A stretch of DNA of 37,517 bases from a virus (Duplodnaviria > Caudoviricetes), in IMG/VR virus record IMGVR_UViG_3300020044_003662, positions 1 through 37,517 of that record; one strand, written 5' to 3'. The position numbers and the translations under genes were made by a program. Below, piece by piece: positions 3,070 through 37,517 of the stretch. The notes under the pieces are model-generated. The model saw nothing but the letters and a program-made list of their open reading frames with translations. It searched no databases and was not told the origin of the DNA. Every line of letters begins with the position of its first letter. The stretch's first letter is position 1.

Positions 3070-4416
3070 ATGAAAGAAGTCATCGAAAAGTTAGACGCTA
3101 TGGACGTCAAGCAAGCGGAAAGCATTGCCGCTATCGAAGCAAAAATCCCTGCGGCTGTTGAGGCTGTCAAGGCTGAGTTTTCTGAGTTGGTCGCCAACTT
3201 GGAAGCCAAAGTTGCCGCTGTGCAAGTCCCTGCTATCCACAAAGAAAAAGCCAAGTCTGTTCGCTCTGACGTAAACCGTCACGTGCGTGAGCAGTTGAAA
3301 CAAATGGTTGACGGCAAGTCTTCATTCGAGAAACAACTGCAAATTTTTGCTGACGAATCTCAGATGCAAGCGTACCTGTCTGAAGCCTCTGCCCTGACAG
3401 GCGGCGGTGACGGCAAGGGCGGTCGTACAGCGTATGACCCCGTGTTTGCCGCTTTGCGTTTGGCTAATCCTTTGCGCGGCGTGTCACGCACTGTTGCTAC
3501 TGATGGCTCAAGCTACCAGTTCCGTGTTAAGACAGGCAACGCAGGTGCACAGTGGGGCTATGACATTCAAAACAACGGTACGCCAACAACTGAGAACACC
3601 AGTATTTGGCAAATCGTGTTGAAGGACATCAACGTTCAATTCCCAATCCGTACAGCGGCTTTGGACGACATTGATGGTTTGGAAGCAAACGTTGTTGACG
3701 ACATGTTGGCTGAATTCGCACAGAGTGAAGCCCTCTCCATGATTCAAAATAACGACCAGACCGGCACAGGCTCTACATCAGCCTATGGTGGCGCGGACGG
3801 ATTGCGAGGCCTCGACCAATATCCCGGTGCTAACAGTTCATACGCCGGTGGTACAACGTCAACAGCCGCATTCGGTTCCTCTGGTACTGGCTCAACAAGC
3901 GGCTTGCACAGCCTTGCCACATACGACCAGTTGACAACCAACGCGAACACCGTTGGCGCAAACAACATTACCTACAATGACGTAATCAATTTCATCTACG
4001 CATTACCTCAGCAGTACTGGACCGACAGCGCAAAGTTTGTCATCAGCCCAATCCTGTTGAATGCAATCCGTGCATTGAAAGATGACAACGGCGCACCTAT
4101 CTTCAATCGTAATGAAGGTTTGTCTGTTGACGGTATCGTTGGCAACCTGTTGGGCTTTGATGTTGTTGTTAACAAATACGTTGACACTCCCTCACAGACC
4201 ACTACTGGTACAGCCGGTACAAACAGCTTGTACCCAATGTACTTCGCTGACTGGTCACGTTTCCACACAATCATTGATCGTTTGAACATGGTTATGCGCA
4301 GATACGACCAGACACTCCCCGGCTACATAACTTTCTTCGGGGAAAAACGTTTGGCAACGAGCGTGCGTGATCCTAATGCAGGTGTCCGCTATCGTTCAAC
4401 AGCCACTGCGACCTAA
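3070..4416 (+). CDS. Major capsid protein 1 (HK97 fold, ~105 aa helical N-terminal delta domain)
   Basis: 448 aa; ANPLR, LKDDNGAPIF, LLGFDVVVN, YFADWS, GYITFFGEKR; AAGG RBS. Confidence 0.92.
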   Translation: MKEVIEKLDAMDVKQAESIAAIEAKIPAAVEAVKAEFSELVANLEAKVAAVQVPAIHKEKAKSVRSDVNRHVREQLKQMVDGKSSFEKQLQIFADESQMQAYLSEASALTGGGDGKGGRTAYDPVFAALRLANPLRGVSRTVATDGSSYQFRVKTGNAGAQWGYDIQNNGTPTTENTSIWQIVLKDINVQFPIRTAALDDIDGLEANVVDDMLAEFAQSEALSMIQNNDQTGTGSTSAYGGADGLRGLDQYPGANSSYAGGTTSTAAFGSSGTGSTSGLHSLATYDQLTTNANTVGANNITYNDVINFIYALPQQYWTDSAKFVISPILLNAIRALKDDNGAPIFNRNEGLSVDGIVGNLLGFDVVVNKYVDTPSQTTTGTAGTNSLYPMYFADWSRFHTIIDRLNMVMRRYDQTLPGYITFFGEKRLATSVRDPNAGVRYRSTATAT

Positions 4417-4428
4417 TTGCAGTGCCAT

Positions 4429-4457
4429 TGGTGGGGGCTTCGGCCCTCACCTTTTTT
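4429..4457 (+). terminator. Intrinsic terminator between the two capsid genes
   Basis: GGTGGGGGC-TTCG-GCCCTCACC stem with a cUUCGg loop, followed by TTTTTT. Confidence 0.8.
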
Positions 4458-4480
4458 GCTTCATCTTCACGGGAATGACC

Positions 4481-5497
4481 ATGACAAAAACCGAACAAAT
4501 CCTGAATGCCATCAAAACGGCAATTACCGAAAATCGTCCTGTCACAATCGACTTGAAAGAGGCCAGTGGCATCACTGGTTCAGGTTCCGGTGTCGGCGGT
4601 CGCACCGTGTTTGATGATGCGTTCGCGGCCCTGCGCTATGCCAATCCTTTGCGTCAAGGTGCACGCGAAATTTCCGTTGCAGGGTCTGATGCACAGTTTG
4701 TCGCAAAAACCGGTAACGCCGCAAATTCGACAAATCCTTGGGGCTACACTTTCACGCCCAACTCAGGCTCACCAAATATCAACACAAGCATTTGGCAGTT
4801 GCCAGTGCGTGTGTTAACGGCTCAGTTGCCCGTCCGTTCTGCCGTGTTGTCAGACGTGAACGGCCTTGAAGCCACAATCGCTGAAGACCTTGCACTTGAG
4901 TTCTCACAGCTTGAAGCAACCTCTATGGTTCAAAACAACGACCAAAGCGGAACTACAACAACCTCTACCGGTGGTACAGATGGCTTACGTGGCCTTGATA
5001 GTTACACATCCGGTGCTACAAGCGCGTTTGGCACTTCTGGCACGGGCATTACAAACGGTATTCACACGATTGCTACAGTGTCCTTGGGCGGCACTGCTGT
5101 CACCTACAACAAGATGACAAACATGGCTAATGCGTTGCCATCACAATACTGGGCAATGCCCGGTACTGCTTGGCACATCAGCCCCACAATGATTCAAACC
5201 TTGCGCCAGTTGAAAGACACAGCGGGCTTGCCATTGTTCTTGGAGTTGGGCGAAAAAGACGGCGCGGCTATCGGTCACGTGTTCGGTTTCCCTGTAATCC
5301 CAAACCCGTACCTGACAGACGCATTTCCAGTCTACCTTGCTAACTGGCCTCGATTCCTCACCATCGGTGATACAGAGATGATGACAATTCAAGGTTTTGA
5401 CCAGACACAACCCGGTTTTGTGACAATGTTCGCTGAGATGCGTATGGTAAGTACTGTGCGCGACCCGTTCGCCGGTGTGCGTATGTCTGCCGCCTAA
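4481..5497 (+). CDS. Second capsid protein paralog (HK97 fold, short ~27 aa leader)
   Basis: Colinear with MCP1: GGRT, FAALR.ANPLR, KTGNA, NTSIWQ, QNNDQ, DGLRGLD, DQT.PG, VRDP.AGVR. Start chosen at the ATG after GGGAA. Confidence 0.88.
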   Translation: MTKTEQILNAIKTAITENRPVTIDLKEASGITGSGSGVGGRTVFDDAFAALRYANPLRQGAREISVAGSDAQFVAKTGNAANSTNPWGYTFTPNSGSPNINTSIWQLPVRVLTAQLPVRSAVLSDVNGLEATIAEDLALEFSQLEATSMVQNNDQSGTTTTSTGGTDGLRGLDSYTSGATSAFGTSGTGITNGIHTIATVSLGGTAVTYNKMTNMANALPSQYWAMPGTAWHISPTMIQTLRQLKDTAGLPLFLELGEKDGAAIGHVFGFPVIPNPYLTDAFPVYLANWPRFLTIGDTEMMTIQGFDQTQPGFVTMFAEMRMVSTVRDPFAGVRMSAA

Positions 5498-21900: not shown

Positions 21901-23058
21901 ATGAAAAAACTCAAAATAGCAGTCTACGCAATCAGCAAAAACGAAGAACAGTTTGTAAACAGATTTTGTGACTCAGCCAAAGACGCAGACCTTGTGTTGA
22001 TTGCTGACACGGGTTCTACAGATGAAACTGTTGCTAGGGCCATAGAGAACGGTGCTTCAGTTTTTGATATTTGTGTCAAGCCTTGGCGGTTTGATAAGGC
22101 CCGTGACACGGCATTGAATCTCATCCCGGGAGATTTTGATGTGTGTATCTCCCTCGACCTAGATGAAATCCTTGAACCGGGATGGCGGGAGGAAATTGAA
22201 CGTGTGTGGCAAGACAACACAACTCGTCTGCGTTACAAGTTTGATTGGGGCTGTGGCATCAGCTTCTACTACGAGAAAATTCATCATCGTCAGGGCTACC
22301 ACTGGCATCACCCTGTACACGAATACCCAAGACCTGACGGTCGCACTGTAGAAGTGTACGCCCACACCGATATGCTGTTGGTCAGCCATCACCCTGACCC
22401 AACCAAGTCCCGGGGCCAGTACATGCCATTGCTTGAACTAGCGGTGCAAGAGGACCCCATCTGCCCTCGCAATGCGTTCTATCACGCCCGCGAACTGACG
22501 TTCTACTATCGTTGGCAAGAGGCTATAACAGCCCTCAACAGATATTTGGAACTGCCCGGTGCGACTTGGCCTAATGAGCGTTGTTACGCAATGCGGTTGT
22601 TGGGTAAATCCTATGAGCATCTACACAACCATCACGAGGCCTACAAGTGGTATCAGATGGCCTGTGCAGAGGCCCCTAACACCCGTGAGCCTTGGGTTGA
22701 CTTGGCAATGTTTGCGTATATGACACACGACTGGAATACGTGTTTTTACGCATCTCAAAAAGCCCTCGAGGTGAAGGACAAGGCCCTTGTGTACACGATG
22801 GACCCAAGCGTGTGGACAGAGAAACCTCATGACCTTGCAAGCATCGCCGCTTGGAACCTTGGGTGGGGCGACTTAGCAAGACAACATTTAGAGGATGCCA
22901 TAAAATTCAACCCAACAGATGCCCGGCTGTTGTCCAACCGGGAATTGATGAAAGCATCGAATGACAACAATGACAGAGACGGAAGCGCGACTGAACAGTC
23001 ACGAAGCGGTCTGCGCCCTGCGGTACGAGCAGATAAACGCCCGCTTGAAGCGGCTTGA
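21901..23058 (+). CDS. Family 2 glycosyltransferase with C-terminal TPR-like repeats
   Basis: AISKNEE, ADTGSTD, RFDKARD, DxD (SLDLDE), HHPVHE; helical repeats (AFYHAREL, AYKWYQMA, EPWVDLA). Confidence 0.88.
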   Translation: MKKLKIAVYAISKNEEQFVNRFCDSAKDADLVLIADTGSTDETVARAIENGASVFDICVKPWRFDKARDTALNLIPGDFDVCISLDLDEILEPGWREEIERVWQDNTTRLRYKFDWGCGISFYYEKIHHRQGYHWHHPVHEYPRPDGRTVEVYAHTDMLLVSHHPDPTKSRGQYMPLLELAVQEDPICPRNAFYHARELTFYYRWQEAITALNRYLELPGATWPNERCYAMRLLGKSYEHLHNHHEAYKWYQMACAEAPNTREPWVDLAMFAYMTHDWNTCFYASQKALEVKDKALVYTMDPSVWTEKPHDLASIAAWNLGWGDLARQHLEDAIKFNPTDARLLSNRELMKASNDNNDRDGSATEQSRSGLRPAVRADKRPLEAA

Positions 23059-33519: not shown

Positions 33520-33930
33520 ATGGTCAAATTCAAAGCAACCGTAGAGGCGACACGGATTCCGTCAAAGGACCCGGTGATGGACTTCACGATGTGCGTTCTC
33601 AACAGCGTTACAGTGACGCATATTCAGCACCTTGTAGCGAAAACCTATGCGATTCACGTTGCATTAGGCGAGTTTTATGGTGAGGTCGGCGACTTGGTTG
33701 ATTCGTTTGTTGAGTCATTCCAAGGGAAATACGGCTTGCTTACCAGTTTCCCTACAAGCTATTCAGTGCCGTCAATGGAGCCGATACCCTACCTTGAGTC
33801 TTTGAAACAAGAGGTCGATTACTACAGGCAAGCACAAGGTTTCCCACAGGATTCTGAACTGCAAAACGAGGTCGACAACATAGCAAACCTCATCAACAGC
33901 ACGTTGAATAAATTGAAACACTACAAATAA
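33520..33930 (+). CDS. Ferritin/Dps-like four-helix protein
   Basis: HIQHL....YAIHVALGEFY....DLVDSFVE pattern; GGAGG RBS. Confidence 0.65.
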   Translation: MVKFKATVEATRIPSKDPVMDFTMCVLNSVTVTHIQHLVAKTYAIHVALGEFYGEVGDLVDSFVESFQGKYGLLTSFPTSYSVPSMEPIPYLESLKQEVDYYRQAQGFPQDSELQNEVDNIANLINSTLNKLKHYK

Positions 33931-33946
33931 CACTACAGGACAAGAC

Positions 33947-34549
33947 ATGACAAAATTGAAGATTGTTTACCGACAAACCAGTGACCTGATTCCTTACGCA
34001 AGGAACTCGCGTACCCATAGCGAATTGCAAGTGGCTCAAATAGCCTCTAGCATCAAGGAATTCGGGTTCACTTCACCCATCCTGTTAGACGGTGAAAACG
34101 GCATCATCGCCGGTCATGGTCGCTATCAGGCCGCAATCAAAATGGCTATGCGCGAAGTCCCAACAATCGACTTGTCGCACCTGACAGAGGCTCAGAAACG
34201 GGCTTACGTCATTGCTGACAACAAGATTGCCCTCAACAGCGGTTGGGACGAGCAGATGCTTGAGTTGGAAATTCAAGACCTTCGTGATGCGGGCTTTAAC
34301 ATCGACCTCTTAGCCTTTGACCCGTCAGAACTCAAATCCGCAAGCGTGGACTATTCCGTGTTGGACGATGAGGAAATTGATGACCAACTGGACGATATGG
34401 CAAAGGGTGTTCGCAAGGCCATTCAAATCGAATTTGAACCCGAGCATTACGAGGAAGCAACAGAACTCGTAAAGTTTTGGCGTGAGCAGGGCGGCTATGT
34501 AGGCATGATGCTGTTGAATTACCTCAAGGCCGAAAAAGACAAACTGTGA
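33947..34549 (+). CDS. ParB/Srx N-terminal domain protein
   Basis: LIPYARNSRTH...QIASSIKEFGF..PIL, IIAGHGR, ADNK....GWD; no fused methyltransferase. Confidence 0.9.
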   Translation: MTKLKIVYRQTSDLIPYARNSRTHSELQVAQIASSIKEFGFTSPILLDGENGIIAGHGRYQAAIKMAMREVPTIDLSHLTEAQKRAYVIADNKIALNSGWDEQMLELEIQDLRDAGFNIDLLAFDPSELKSASVDYSVLDDEEIDDQLDDMAKGVRKAIQIEFEPEHYEEATELVKFWREQGGYVGMMLLNYLKAEKDKL

Positions 34550-35013
34550 AGTGTTTTTATTTGGTCGGCTATCACGGATGTGGGAAAACGACCCAAGCAA
34601 ACTTGCTTGAAAAACACTTCCCTCATTACAACTACATAGGCGGCAAAGCCGGTCTGGACGCTATTGGTAGTGTGAATGAACTCGTAAGCCTTGTGAAAGC
34701 AAGCAAAACGGACATGGTGATACACGGCTGTATCTTTCAGACCGAACCAACTTTACTCAGGCTGTCCCGGTTAACAAGCCTCGAAATAATCGTGATGCAC
34801 AGCCTACCTGAAACGGTGAAGCAAAGGACCTTGAAGCGTGGTGCGGCCTCTTACAACCTAGACAAATTCAAAGCTCACTACAGCTTCATCAAAAAACTTC
34901 CGGGATTGAAAAAAGTTTACTCATTTGGCCTACACGTTGTTAACAACAACCGGCCTACAGAGGAAGTGTTCAAAGACATAAGGCAAATATGTGCGCCATC
35001 ATCGGCTTCATAA
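34546..35013 (+). CDS. P-loop nucleotide kinase-like protein
   Basis: Walker A GYHGCGKTT at the N-terminus; lid-like R...RG; GTGA-coupled. Confidence 0.8.
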   Translation: MKCFYLVGYHGCGKTTQANLLEKHFPHYNYIGGKAGLDAIGSVNELVSLVKASKTDMVIHGCIFQTEPTLLRLSRLTSLEIIVMHSLPETVKQRTLKRGAASYNLDKFKAHYSFIKKLPGLKKVYSFGLHVVNNNRPTEEVFKDIRQICAPSSAS

Positions 35014-35588
35014 GTGACAGCCCTACCCAACAGGCGGTAGACACGCTCAAAAAAGTCTTTATTGAATCAAAGATTCGAGGAATGCACGCCTATGGCTATG
35101 CCGCTATTCAGGACGGGCACTTAATGGAGGCTAAGTCGAACGGCCTAAAGTCTTTGCTTGTAAGCATCAACAACCCTACACGCCTGATTGGGCACTGCCG
35201 TTACAGCACAAGCGGCGACTACAAGGATATGAACAACAATCAGCCCTTGCGTTATGGCGAGGAATATTTGGTTTTCAATGGCGTGATTGACATGAGAACA
35301 AAGGCTGAGATGGAAGCGGCCTACAACATCAAAATGAATTCCGACAATGACGGTGAAATCATGCTTCAGACCCCGAACCGGACCGGCTTGCTCAAGTCCG
35401 GAATAACGTTCAGCGGCCTGACACTCAATTCGCATGCCCTTGCGTTTTTTCGGAATGAGGGCAGGCCCGGGTACAAGGCGACCCGTTTCGGTGCAACCTA
35501 CATTGCCTCGACTGCCGACATTTTGCGCAGGTGTTTGCTTCAGCCCGAACCCTTGAACCCTCATGAGGTGTACGAATGGACAACATAA
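34989..35588 (+). CDS. Class II (Ntn) glutamine amidotransferase domain protein
   Basis: N-terminal MCAIIG (Cys2 nucleophile), RG, GHCRYSTSG, NQP, FNGVI, NDGE. Confidence 0.87.
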   Translation: MCAIIGFISDSPTQQAVDTLKKVFIESKIRGMHAYGYAAIQDGHLMEAKSNGLKSLLVSINNPTRLIGHCRYSTSGDYKDMNNNQPLRYGEEYLVFNGVIDMRTKAEMEAAYNIKMNSDNDGEIMLQTPNRTGLLKSGITFSGLTLNSHALAFFRNEGRPGYKATRFGATYIASTADILRRCLLQPEPLNPHEVYEWTT

Positions 35589-36457
35589 CCGAGTATTTGC
35601 GGTTTCACCGGGATTCATCCACGGCAAATGATATTGACCCTCAAAACGATTGCTTGTCTTACATTTCGGACCGATATGAACTGAACATCGAGCAAAGGTT
35701 TTGGTTGGCTTTCCTGTTTGGCACGTGTTACTGCGCACCAACGGTTTTTTATCTGTACAACGAATTTCCCGATTACAGCACGGTCGATGTAGGCCGCTTA
35801 GAGCGTTTTTGGGCCCATAACAAGCAAAAACTCGTGTTTCAGACCGACCGAGCAAGGGTCCGAAGCAACGATGAGTTTGTAAATTGCTTCAAGTCCTACA
35901 GGGCTATCGTAGGCCCGAACCAAGAGCAATTCTTCAAGCGGCTCAAGCACCCGTCAGCGGTCGAAACGTACAAAAATGCCCTCAAAGCCCTTGGAGGGCT
36001 TCACTACTTTGGGCGGTTCACGATGTTCATTTACCTTGAGATGGTATCGGTCCTAACAGACGTGAAGATGGTTCCACACACGCTAGACCTACGCAATGCT
36101 GAAAGTTGCCGCAACGGGATTGCCCTTGCTTTAGGCCGTCAAGACATATTCACGCATTTCACTGACAAGCCCCTAACAGACGCGAACTATGCGGACCTCG
36201 AAAAGGGTTTCCATCGCATCGTGGAGGCCGTACAGTACATGCCCATCCGTCACCAAGACATCTTCAACATCGAAACAACCCTTTGCGCCTACAAAAAGGT
36301 CAAACTAGGCAAACGCTATGTAGGCTTCTACATCGAGCGTATGCGCAAGGAAATCGAGGTCATGGAAAAGAACGTGCCAAGAGGCGTAGACTGGTCCGTG
36401 TTGTACGACTTCCGTAAGAAAAACTACCAACCCCGATTCCTGAAGGAAAAGCAATGA
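35576..36457 (+). CDS. Amino acid:DNA transferase-like protein (aGPT-pyrophosphorylase superfamily, HhH-glycosylase-like fold)
   Basis: FWLAFLFG.CY, FQTDR, YFGRF..FIYLE, ETTLCAYKK...YVG.Y motifs; neighbouring genes. Confidence 0.75.
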   Translation: MDNITEYLRFHRDSSTANDIDPQNDCLSYISDRYELNIEQRFWLAFLFGTCYCAPTVFYLYNEFPDYSTVDVGRLERFWAHNKQKLVFQTDRARVRSNDEFVNCFKSYRAIVGPNQEQFFKRLKHPSAVETYKNALKALGGLHYFGRFTMFIYLEMVSVLTDVKMVPHTLDLRNAESCRNGIALALGRQDIFTHFTDKPLTDANYADLEKGFHRIVEAVQYMPIRHQDIFNIETTLCAYKKVKLGKRYVGFYIERMRKEIEVMEKNVPRGVDWSVLYDFRKKNYQPRFLKEKQ

Positions 36458-37230
36458 AACGTGTTGACCTCGTTCAAATCCCTCACAGCGTCAAGATTGG
36501 CGACACTTGCGGTCATATCGAACCGAACGTGACAGAGGACTGCGTGTTTTATGCTGACGGTGAGCCTGTAGGCTTTTACATCAAGGAAATAACGGGCAAA
36601 TTGAGGCAGTTCATTGACGTTGCTAACGCAGAGTTGCTAACAGACCGTGTCCCGAAAAGCGTGATGAGGCGTTCAAGCGGCCTAACAAACGCTGAAAACG
36701 AAGTCGAGCAATACAGCACCATCATCGGCTCATGCCCTCCCAAGCCTCATATGCGTAGGCCCTACCCAACAATGTCGAGCGTTCACACGGTCAAATCGGC
36801 TAACACGTTCATCAAGGCAATGATGCTTGCTTGTAGGGAGTCCGAGCAACTCATCAAAGAGATAACCCCAAGCATCTATGAAAAACAGAAGTCAATTATT
36901 GAAACCAAGGTCCCTCCGCAATGGCGGTTTGGCGACTTGTTCACATCGAGCATTAGCAATTTCAACATCAGCGCACCTTTCCACCGGGATGCCGGCAACC
37001 TCGAAGGCTGTGTCAACGTCATCATCGCTAAGAAGCACAACGCCCGGGGTGGTAACACGACTGTTCCAGACTACGGCGCGACAGTGGACAGTCGAGATAA
37101 CTCCATGCTTGTTTACCCGGCTTGGCGTAATGTCCATGGAGTAACCCCCATAGTGCCCACCCAAAAGGGGGGCTATCGTAACAGCCTAGTGTTCTATCCA
37201 CTCAAGGCCTTCAACACGTATTGGGACTGA
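36454..37230 (+). CDS. TET/JBP-like 2-oxoglutarate/Fe(II) dioxygenase
   Basis: FTSSISNFN, HxD (FHRDAGN), distal His (HGVTPI), 2OG-binding RNSLVFY. Confidence 0.85.
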   Translation: MKRVDLVQIPHSVKIGDTCGHIEPNVTEDCVFYADGEPVGFYIKEITGKLRQFIDVANAELLTDRVPKSVMRRSSGLTNAENEVEQYSTIIGSCPPKPHMRRPYPTMSSVHTVKSANTFIKAMMLACRESEQLIKEITPSIYEKQKSIIETKVPPQWRFGDLFTSSISNFNISAPFHRDAGNLEGCVNVIIAKKHNARGGNTTVPDYGATVDSRDNSMLVYPAWRNVHGVTPIVPTQKGGYRNSLVFYPLKAFNTYWD

Positions 37231-37386
37231 TGCCATACTTACCTTCAAACAACAAGTGTTCGCAACTCGGGTGTAAGGAACCCCGTAGTAAATTGAACTC
37301 GTATTGTGTAGCCCACGGTGGCAAGGACTGGAGCAAGACCGAGTCATCGAGCATCTATCAAACACCGGCATGGCGAAGCATCAGGG
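37230..37386 (+). CDS. Packaging-associated HNH endonuclease, N-terminal part (3'-truncated)
   Basis: MP....CSQLGC....YCVAH...YQTPAWRSIR, typical of HNH genes ahead of terminase; TGATG-coupled; cut by the inverted end segment. Confidence 0.7.
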
Positions 37387-37517
37387 CGCGTCTGTTAGAG
37401 GCTTGTCAGTGAAATGCGTGAATATGTCTTGACGGTTTAGGGCAAGCGCAATTCCGTTGCGGCAACTTTCAGCAATGCGTAGGTCTAGCGTGTGAGGGAC
37501 CATCTTCACGTCTGTTA
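37387..37517 (-). repeat. Diverged inverted copy of 36054..36184 (10 mismatches in 131 nt) at the contig end
   Basis: Direct base-by-base comparison. Confidence 0.92.

Follow-up and report, generated by a model that had tools for sequence, protein, structure and literature searches.

A five-gene phage cassette predicted to hypermodify thymine in replicated DNA with a ParB-linked dioxygenase and a candidate glutamine-dependent aminotransferase

INTRODUCTION

Phage dioxygenases activated by a ParB protein have been shown to oxidize thymine to 5-hydroxymethyluracil (5hmU) directly on DNA (O'Toole et al., PNAS 2026; PMC13229309; preprint 10.1101/2025.08.14.668559). The same article describes ParB-dependent thymine dioxygenases as "consistently linked" with a glutamine amidotransferase (GATase), a kinase, and a transferase, and it names this five-family neighborhood. 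Earlier, Lee et al. (NAR 2021; PMC8989533) predicted metavirome clusters that combine TET_JBP, 5-HMUDK, and aGPT-Pplase2 genes without a dUMP hydroxymethylase. For the later steps, monophosphorylation by the kinase, which for M6 gp54 is an ATP-dependent gain of 80 Da on 5hmU-DNA, and a methylene intermediate of the transferase have been shown elsewhere (PMC8989533). These two articles leave open the role of the amidotransferase in thymidine hypermodification clusters and the base made by clusters that start with a dioxygenase. Here, we analyze such a cluster in a tailed-phage genome from metagenomic data (IMG/VR record IMGVR_UViG_3300020044_003662; Duplodnaviria, Caudoviricetes), the whole 37,517-base stretch of which we call the window. 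The cassette encodes, in this order, a ParB-like protein, a P-loop kinase, a class II (Ntn) glutamine amidotransferase (GAT), an amino acid:DNA transferase (ADDT), and a TET/JBP-family Fe(II)/2-oxoglutarate (2OG) dioxygenase.

We predict that these genes form a post-replicative thymine hypermodification pathway (probability, about 0.8). As the end product we predict 5-aminomethyl-2'-deoxyuridine, its ammonia drawn from glutamine, a prediction to which we give roughly even odds. More tentatively, at somewhat below even odds, the GAT and the transferase would be the two subunits of a glutamine-dependent DNA aminotransferase that makes 5-aminomethyluracil in one step and is fed by an abundant third lineage of ParB-activated thymine dioxygenases, matched to its ParB through the ParB C-terminal domain.

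RESULTS

The five open reading frames (ORFs) lie on the + strand and overlap by 4, 25, 13, and 4 bases in succession (Table 1). The cluster is not a chance arrangement, as the same gene order recurs in 27 of the 80 best loci kept for counting from a transferase search that returned 88 viral loci (two of the 27 are cut by a contig end). An earlier note on this DNA, made from the letters alone, had described five overlapping genes with intact catalytic motifs; the reading frames are indeed there, and the residues in question are invariant across relatives. Its proposed route on finished DNA, from dioxygenase to kinase to transferase, gains support from the gene identities.

In the pathway we propose, a ParB-switched dioxygenase would oxidize some thymines to 5hmU in host-replicated DNA, as in other clades, and the kinase, judged by homology, would phosphorylate the hydroxymethyl group to give 5-phosphomethyluracil. 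Cys237 of the transferase would then add to C6, the phosphate would leave, and an exocyclic methylene would form, following the chemistry of M6 gp51 and ViI gp247. In the new part of the scheme, the bound GAT would split glutamine and pass ammonia to the methylene. The aminomethyl base would arise in one step, where Pseudomonas phage PaMx11 needs two (glycine transfer and a flavin lyase). In relatives that also carry a GNAT gene this base would be acetylated; the window cassette has no GNAT. The modification probably serves to shield phage DNA in part from host nucleases, and it may be timed with packaging because the cassette lies directly ahead of the HNH/terminase genes.

The genome has no gene for a C5-methyltransferase, thymidylate synthase, dCMP deaminase, PolA, or PolB, and control genomes were positive in each of these searches. 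This bears out the earlier note, which had found DNA polymerase, dUMP hydroxymethylase, dCMP deaminase, and C5-methyltransferase genes missing, and the absence of genes for the nucleotide-pool route or for 5-methylcytosine (5mC) favors the proposed pathway.

Table 1. The five cassette genes and their positions in the window
Product	Position	Strand	Length and best match
ParB-like protein	33947..34549	+	200 aa; PHROG 620 E 1.7e-53
P-loop kinase	34546..35013	+	155 aa; NMP-kinase fold, profile match to M6-like kinases
Class II (Ntn) glutamine amidotransferase (GAT)	34989..35588	+	199 aa; GATase_6 E 1.2e-7
Amino acid:DNA transferase (ADDT, aGPT-Pplase clade 2)	35576..36457	+	293 aa; PF18724 E 4.2e-18
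TET/JBP-family Fe(II)/2OG dioxygenase	36454..37230	+	258 aa; Tet_JBP 35.0 bits

The dioxygenase is a marginal pass for the Tet_JBP profile (E 1e-8; cut-off, 34.9 bits). Its iron triad and 2OG-binding arginine (H177/D179/H228/R242) are nevertheless invariant in 127 of 127 close dioxygenases and in all 8 of a mixed-clade set. TET2 is the top Foldseek match of the structure model (pLDDT 92.2; E 1.6e-10), and the matches listed down to rank 26 are all TET2, CcTET, CMD1, or NgTET1, followed by FTO; a grouping with 2OG enzymes that act on substrates other than nucleic acids, which by the earlier note would have refuted its scheme, was thus not seen. A PHROG label for the family, "queuine tRNA-ribosyltransferase," was rejected on fold and motifs. 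The closest enzyme from a cultured phage is that of Prochlorococcus phage MED4-184 (54% identity).

Tested enzymes are more distant: 5mYOX182 shares 28% identity with it over 180 aa, 5mYOX172 shares 35% over 89 aa, and 5mYOX98 and 5mYOX99 are 20-23% identical. The contigs of these enzymes were located by short-motif scans (5mYOX182, L139; 5mYOX172, L173; 5mYOX98, L320; 5mYOX99, L318; numbers with L denote loci in our set), and their accessions were matched to Dataset S11 of O'Toole et al. In a quick tree of 51 rows, the 15 members related to the window enzyme form one clade (SH-aLRT 100; stem, 1.66), called the window clade below. It joins actinophage enzymes and L071, with a long-branch warning, and stands apart from the tested 5mYOX182 and 5mYOX172 and from the methyltransferase-linked Melnitz enzyme. 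The tree holds 2 of the 24 listed C1 enzymes only, and its labels "C1" and "C2like" are motif based on all rows other than tested enzymes and are mixed within the tree. The enzymes grouping nearest the window clade include those of three cultured phages, Rhodococcus phage Tonitrus (L227), Gordonia phage CaiB (L332), and Mycobacterium phage Cooper (L331), in which ParB and dioxygenase genes likewise precede the terminase. A study of Tonitrus reportedly describes a five-gene thymine system.

The window dioxygenase ends 10 residues past Y248, where C1 enzymes continue for ~30-35, and thus has no C-terminal extension. Membership in 5mYOX clade C1 was rejected on this ground and on the separate clade; C1 stays as an analogy, the window dioxygenase probably resembling a C1 enzyme in context while not being one by sequence. 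Window-clade dioxygenases appear to fall outside the tested clades sampled, and Iyer et al. (2013) or the supplement of Burke may describe them. They are abundant, with 3,764 protein clusters at E <= 0.001 and an estimated ~930 viral stretches. By analogy with the tested enzymes, the likely role of the window dioxygenase is the oxidation of thymine to 5hmU in DNA.

The dioxygenase could instead act mainly on host-made 5mC and lead to cytosine hypermodification, an alternative that we find quite improbable. Both purified thymine dioxygenases handled 5mC comparably (PMC13229309), and on contigs reported by Burke (PMC8256090) kinase and transferase genes accompany 5mC dioxygenases; the window clade may correspond to clade D of that study, in which TET40 yielded 0.93% 5-hydroxymethylcytosine. 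Searches near relatives by phmmer, Pfam, and HMM found a C5-methyltransferase in two window-clade lineages of the glycosyltransferase type (L090/L091/L092 and L282) and in one C1-type contig, each time ~4 kb upstream, but none in any window-type kinase-GAT-ADDT locus. Clades A and B, the phage 5mC dioxygenases, are recognized by an adjacent C5-methyltransferase, and the window dioxygenase has no such neighbor. It is also far from the Melnitz enzyme, a stand-in for 5mYOX clade B (27% over 135 aa).

Site counts bear on the same question. CCWGG and GCWGC are common C5-methylation sites. The genome lacks GCWGC (38 expected), CGWCG (44 expected), and CCAGC (31 expected) altogether and has single copies of CCWGG (~37 expected) and GAGAC (32 expected); GATC has a ratio of 0.10, and AGCT and TATA are also strongly depleted. 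Such depletion is likely a signature of host restriction systems that might aid in recognizing the host, and for CCWGG it argues against Dcm-type 5mC as the substrate; it gave no pointer to a thymine sequence context. The earlier note had left the substrate as either thymine or host-made 5mC: thymine is the likelier, and the 5mC branch is weakened.

Next to the dioxygenase in function, we place the ParB-like protein, whose match to ParB_N is below the cut-off (E 1.2e-4). An N-terminal ParB domain, an acidic linker, and a short C-terminal domain leave no space for a DNA-binding domain. The protein is 46% identical to the ParB of MED4-184 and 26% identical to ParB182. A ParB gene adjoins 79 of 81 distinct window-clade dioxygenases, the remaining two being at contig edges. 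In a set of 148 distinct ParBs, a C-terminal domain of the window type occurs with 77 of 77 window-clade dioxygenases and with 0 of 71 others, a pairing for which shared descent accounts in part. The N-terminal domain is nearer to ParB182 in 21 of the 77 (in L100, 65% versus 28%), and sequence comparison thus suggests that it evidently swaps while the C-terminal domain stays with the dioxygenase clade. A low-confidence model of O'Toole et al. places the ParB C terminus near the dioxygenase, in agreement with a C-terminal domain that tracks the clade. ParB activation has been shown for other clades only (PMC13229309), and by analogy this ParB is likely the activator of the window dioxygenase.

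The transferase scores above its profile cut-off (66.4 bits; PF18724 cut-off, 26.2). Membership in the aGPT-Pplase/ADDT superfamily, which the earlier note had named beforehand as a test of its scheme, is upheld by this match. All 9 transferases aligned, M6 gp51 and ViI gp247 among them, share E233 and C237. In both of those characterized enzymes, a conserved Cys and a nearby Glu are essential (Lee et al., PMC8989533); we take E233/C237 to be this pair because C237 is the sole invariant Cys. The best characterized match is ViI gp247 (30% identity; E 7e-20), and BLAST gave no match to M6 gp51 at 1e-3. The GAT scores above the GATase_6 cut-off, and its motifs (Cys2, R30-G31, H69/R71-G76 [HxRYSTSG], N97-G98, and D121) are invariant in 29 of 29 sequences. 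In the PDB it matches glutamine PRPP amidotransferase (E 7e-4), and it stands alone, with no synthetase domain fused.

The two proteins are strictly coupled. We defined a subfamily by at least 45% identity over 200 aa to the window transferase, which takes in 75 of 95 distinct transferases, the window's included; distinct proteins were counted, and three truncated fragments, also with a GAT, were excluded. Within the DNA fetched, a GAT is present in the locus of 75 of 75 subfamily transferases and of 0 of 17 other full-length ones. A GNAT accompanies 42 of the 75, a frequency that points to a free amine on the product. Three ViI-like transferases without a GAT (L125, L133, and L159; ORFs of 711-712 aa) are fused to ~400 more residues.

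A model of the GAT-ADDT complex scored 0.67, and the best of three controls scored 0.02; 116 of 157 solved complexes reach the mark used to read such scores, as do 2 of 215 mismatched pairs, but this mark is rough here, where we used our own alignments. Runs share at least 76% of contacts, with a partner pLDDT of at least 87, and the modeled interface is the active-site face of the GAT (residues 28-33, 72-74, and 98-103). Since a PDB search with the ADDT profile gave only M6/PaMx11-type transferases, it seems unlikely that the model recalls a similar complex. None of the 7 non-GAT transferases checked has the GVDW motif of the interface. The model supports binding without demonstrating it, and together with the sequence motifs it suggests that the GAT is likely the ammonia-donating subunit of the transferase. 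The ParB and the amidotransferase, to which the earlier note gave no role, thus both have probable ones.

On the same thymine route, the transferase might attach an entire amino acid, be it serine, glutamine, or glutamate, with the Ntn enzyme trimming or deamidating the adduct or supplying glutamate. All characterized ADDTs in Table 1 of Lee et al. (PMC8989533) transfer an amino acid or putrescine, the ViI serine transferase is the closest characterized relative of the window ADDT, and both the modeled complex and the GNAT also fit this alternative. We consider it rather unlikely, though, as the Ntn enzyme retains its glutamine-amidotransferase motifs, a glutamate supply is hard to justify in cells where glutamate is generally abundant, and coupling in 75 of 75 cases is more to be expected of a subunit than of an enzyme for optional tailoring.

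The kinase is less conspicuous in Pfam, where it has a weak P-loop match below the cut-off (AAA_18, 3.5e-5) and none to PF18748 or PF18751; C1-type kinases likewise fall under the PF18751 cut-off. Its model (pLDDT 91.7) has the NMP-kinase fold, with adenylate and UMP/CMP kinases as the best Foldseek matches. Against a set of M6-like kinases, hhalign gave a probability of 96% (E 1.5e-9; 144 columns). Walker A residues G8/G11/G13/K14 are invariant in 72 of 72 aligned kinases, and a G-x-D motif is kept (GLDAI, aligned with GLDRI in M6 and SMDAI in ViI). The two kinase types are mutually exclusive among the 75 subfamily loci: 26 have the window type, 46 the M6-like type, 3 neither, and none both. 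We take this protein as likely a divergent relative of 5-hydroxymethyldeoxyuridine (5-hmdU) DNA kinases, predicted from sequence to phosphorylate 5hmU in DNA. We find it very improbable that its substrates are instead free nucleotides, or that it has no activity, and that the pathway stops at 5hmU or runs otherwise. The NMP kinases among its structural matches, a Glu-to-His change, and the missing Pfam match to 5-hmdU DNA kinases would fit such a role, but the window kinase replaces the M6-like one, and its full-length profile match and 59-98% identity across 72 clusters suggest an active part.

A second type of locus, seen in 53 of the 80 and cut in some cases by contig ends, has GAT and ADDT together with ParB, an M6-like kinase, and a different dioxygenase; these dioxygenases lie outside the window clade, mostly with the clade C1 motif, and 46 of the 53 loci have a GNAT between GAT and ADDT. 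Over all 80, the GAT is directly upstream of the ADDT in 33, separated by the GNAT in 46, and separated by a 77-base gap in one. Between the two types, GATs are 38-49% and ADDTs 52-57% identical, whereas ParB, dioxygenase, and kinase are far more diverged, and the cassette is therefore a mosaic around a GAT-ADDT core. In L100/L101, a window-clade dioxygenase stands alongside GAT, ADDT, and an M6-like kinase.

The slot between ParB and the window-clade dioxygenase holds interchangeable contents: kinase, GAT, and ADDT in 25 cases, an FkbM methyltransferase in 25, and mostly a glycosyltransferase-like gene or nothing in 26 others. At the same genomic site in L089, where the dioxygenase is 78% identical, the slot has a glycosyltransferase-like gene instead; its product has no Pfam match but clusters with L107, which passes TAGT. 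As these modules could all act on a hydroxymethyl group, they support, indirectly, thymine oxidation as the first step.

Several relatives carry further variants. In L283, L301, and L302, three other genes lie inside the window-clade ParB/dioxygenase pair (by eye, nucleotidyltransferase-like, HAD/kinase-like, and glycosyltransferase-like). ParB and the window-clade dioxygenase are direct neighbors in L287-L291 and L296; without modifiers encoded elsewhere, such loci would yield plain 5hmU. Five window-type loci have a weak 212-aa GNAT between kinase and GAT (L041:4757-5395, L061:1624-2262, L066:4455-5093, L067:4757-5395, and L256:2773-3411). It has weak Pfam scores, is weakly similar to the 134-aa GNAT of C1-type loci, had no match among cultured phages, and is likely an independent gain of the acetylation step.

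The record is a whole linear virus record (CheckV, 100%), with portal, capsid, tape measure, lysis, and Erf/YqaJ genes. It has no small terminase gene and no start of the large one, a short stretch being unseen. Its last 131 bases (37387-37517) are a reverse-complement copy of 36054-36184 (92%; 10 mismatches), likely a chimeric join, by which the HNH gene (37221-37412) is reduced to 63 aa; its L002 counterpart has 140 aa. Directly upstream of ParB, in the window and in most close relatives, is a DUF5856 gene (33520-33930; PHROG 858, starvation-inducible regulator); in L007, L008, and L099 it follows the dioxygenase gene instead. Its product, presumably ferritin/Dps-like, could be linked to the iron supply of the dioxygenase. 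Elsewhere, tandem ORFs (3070-4416 and 4367-5497) both match major head protein PHROG 10, and a GT2 glycosyltransferase with TPR repeats (21901-23058) lies between tail-fiber and lysis genes. An acetyltransferase in the tail region (12779) was rejected as kin of the cassette GNATs, which it does not match.

DISCUSSION

Several observations weigh against the proposed pathway or its product. For the first step, 5mYOX176 depends on a C-terminal extension that window-clade enzymes do not have, and by eye the 47 natural 5mYOX sequences in Dataset S11 of O'Toole et al. include none from this clade. Many of the tested C1 pairs gave <5% 5hmU, and both purified enzymes also oxidized 5mC (PMC13229309). 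In the kinase, His60-Gly replaces the Glu-Gly of characterized kinases in 72 of 72 aligned sequences, and its profile matches to M6 gp54 (E 0.39) and ViI gp243 (E 0.33) are not significant. For the last step, conservation of the modeled interface (0.77 versus an average of 0.53 in 48 distant GAT-linked transferases; 73 of 20,000 random sets) is partly circular, and non-GAT transferases retain the conserved interface residues about as well as other conserved ones (ViI, 7/14 versus 50/108). The GNAT does not discriminate between products, as the ViI-type serine product also has a free amine. Finally, the genome still purges restriction-like sites, so that protection is not blanket.

If the scheme is right, ~3.3 kb would suffice to furnish thymines in any host-replicated DNA with amine handles, and such polymerase-independent primary amines would be a useful tool. 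With no GNAT or other tailoring gene, this minimal cassette makes one clear prediction. A substrate result for the dioxygenase would extend to many phages, as its clade is very common, and the ParB domain pattern bears on dioxygenase recognition, which O'Toole et al. left unresolved.

On novelty, the earlier note is outdated: ParB-activated thymine oxidation by phage enzymes is shown in PMC13229309, and the same inference was drawn by Lee et al. in 2021 (PMC8989533). Its statement that no product has been assigned to this gene combination agrees with the literature we searched, which assigns neither a product nor a role for the amidotransferase, although subscription papers and supplements may hold one. 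Deoxyarchaeosine phages offer a precedent for glutamine-dependent amination of a DNA base, and any "first" is therefore confined to thymidine hypermodification.

The closest described systems differ from the cassette in instructive ways. Like C1 (5mYOX176/ParB176; PMC13229309), it combines a ParB without a DNA-binding domain, a dioxygenase, a GATase, a kinase, and an ADDT with no adjacent C5-methyltransferase, and C1-type loci encode GATs and ADDTs with 38-57% identity to its own. Unlike C1, it has the order ParB-kinase-GAT-ADDT-dioxygenase, another ParB C-terminal domain, and another kinase subfamily; the C1 experiments cover the first step only. The clusters of Lee et al. (PMC8989533; sequences 22-25 of Fig. 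2, compared through text and legend) led to the same inference, 5hmU made in place, as a prediction without a product, and amidotransferases were noted there as co-associated, with no role assigned.

Among characterized phages, PaMx11 (gp49, gp46, gp47, and gp48; 5-aminomethyl- and 5-acetylaminomethyl-dU) would share the predicted end base and the chemistry of kinase and ADDT. Its gp48 is matched at 32.8 bits by the GNAT of C1-type relatives, perhaps through general GNAT likeness. PaMx11, however, depends on 5-hmdU made in the nucleotide pool, on a polymerase of its own, on glycine, and on a flavin lyase, none of which is found in the window. The ViI gp247 serine:DNA transferase shares the Glu/Cys pair with the window transferase (30% identity), but it has 411 aa, no GVDW, and a PLP decarboxylase step next, and no amidotransferase is encoded in the 22 kb fetched. 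Prochlorococcus phages MED4-184 and MED4-117 have a ParB-FkbM-dioxygenase cassette, likewise directly before the terminase, with an FkbM methyltransferase as the middle module instead of kinase, GAT, and ADDT. The gene arrangement is thus already published in kind; this cassette stands out by how few genes it has, by the lineage of its dioxygenase, and by an aminotransferase predicted to consist of two subunits.

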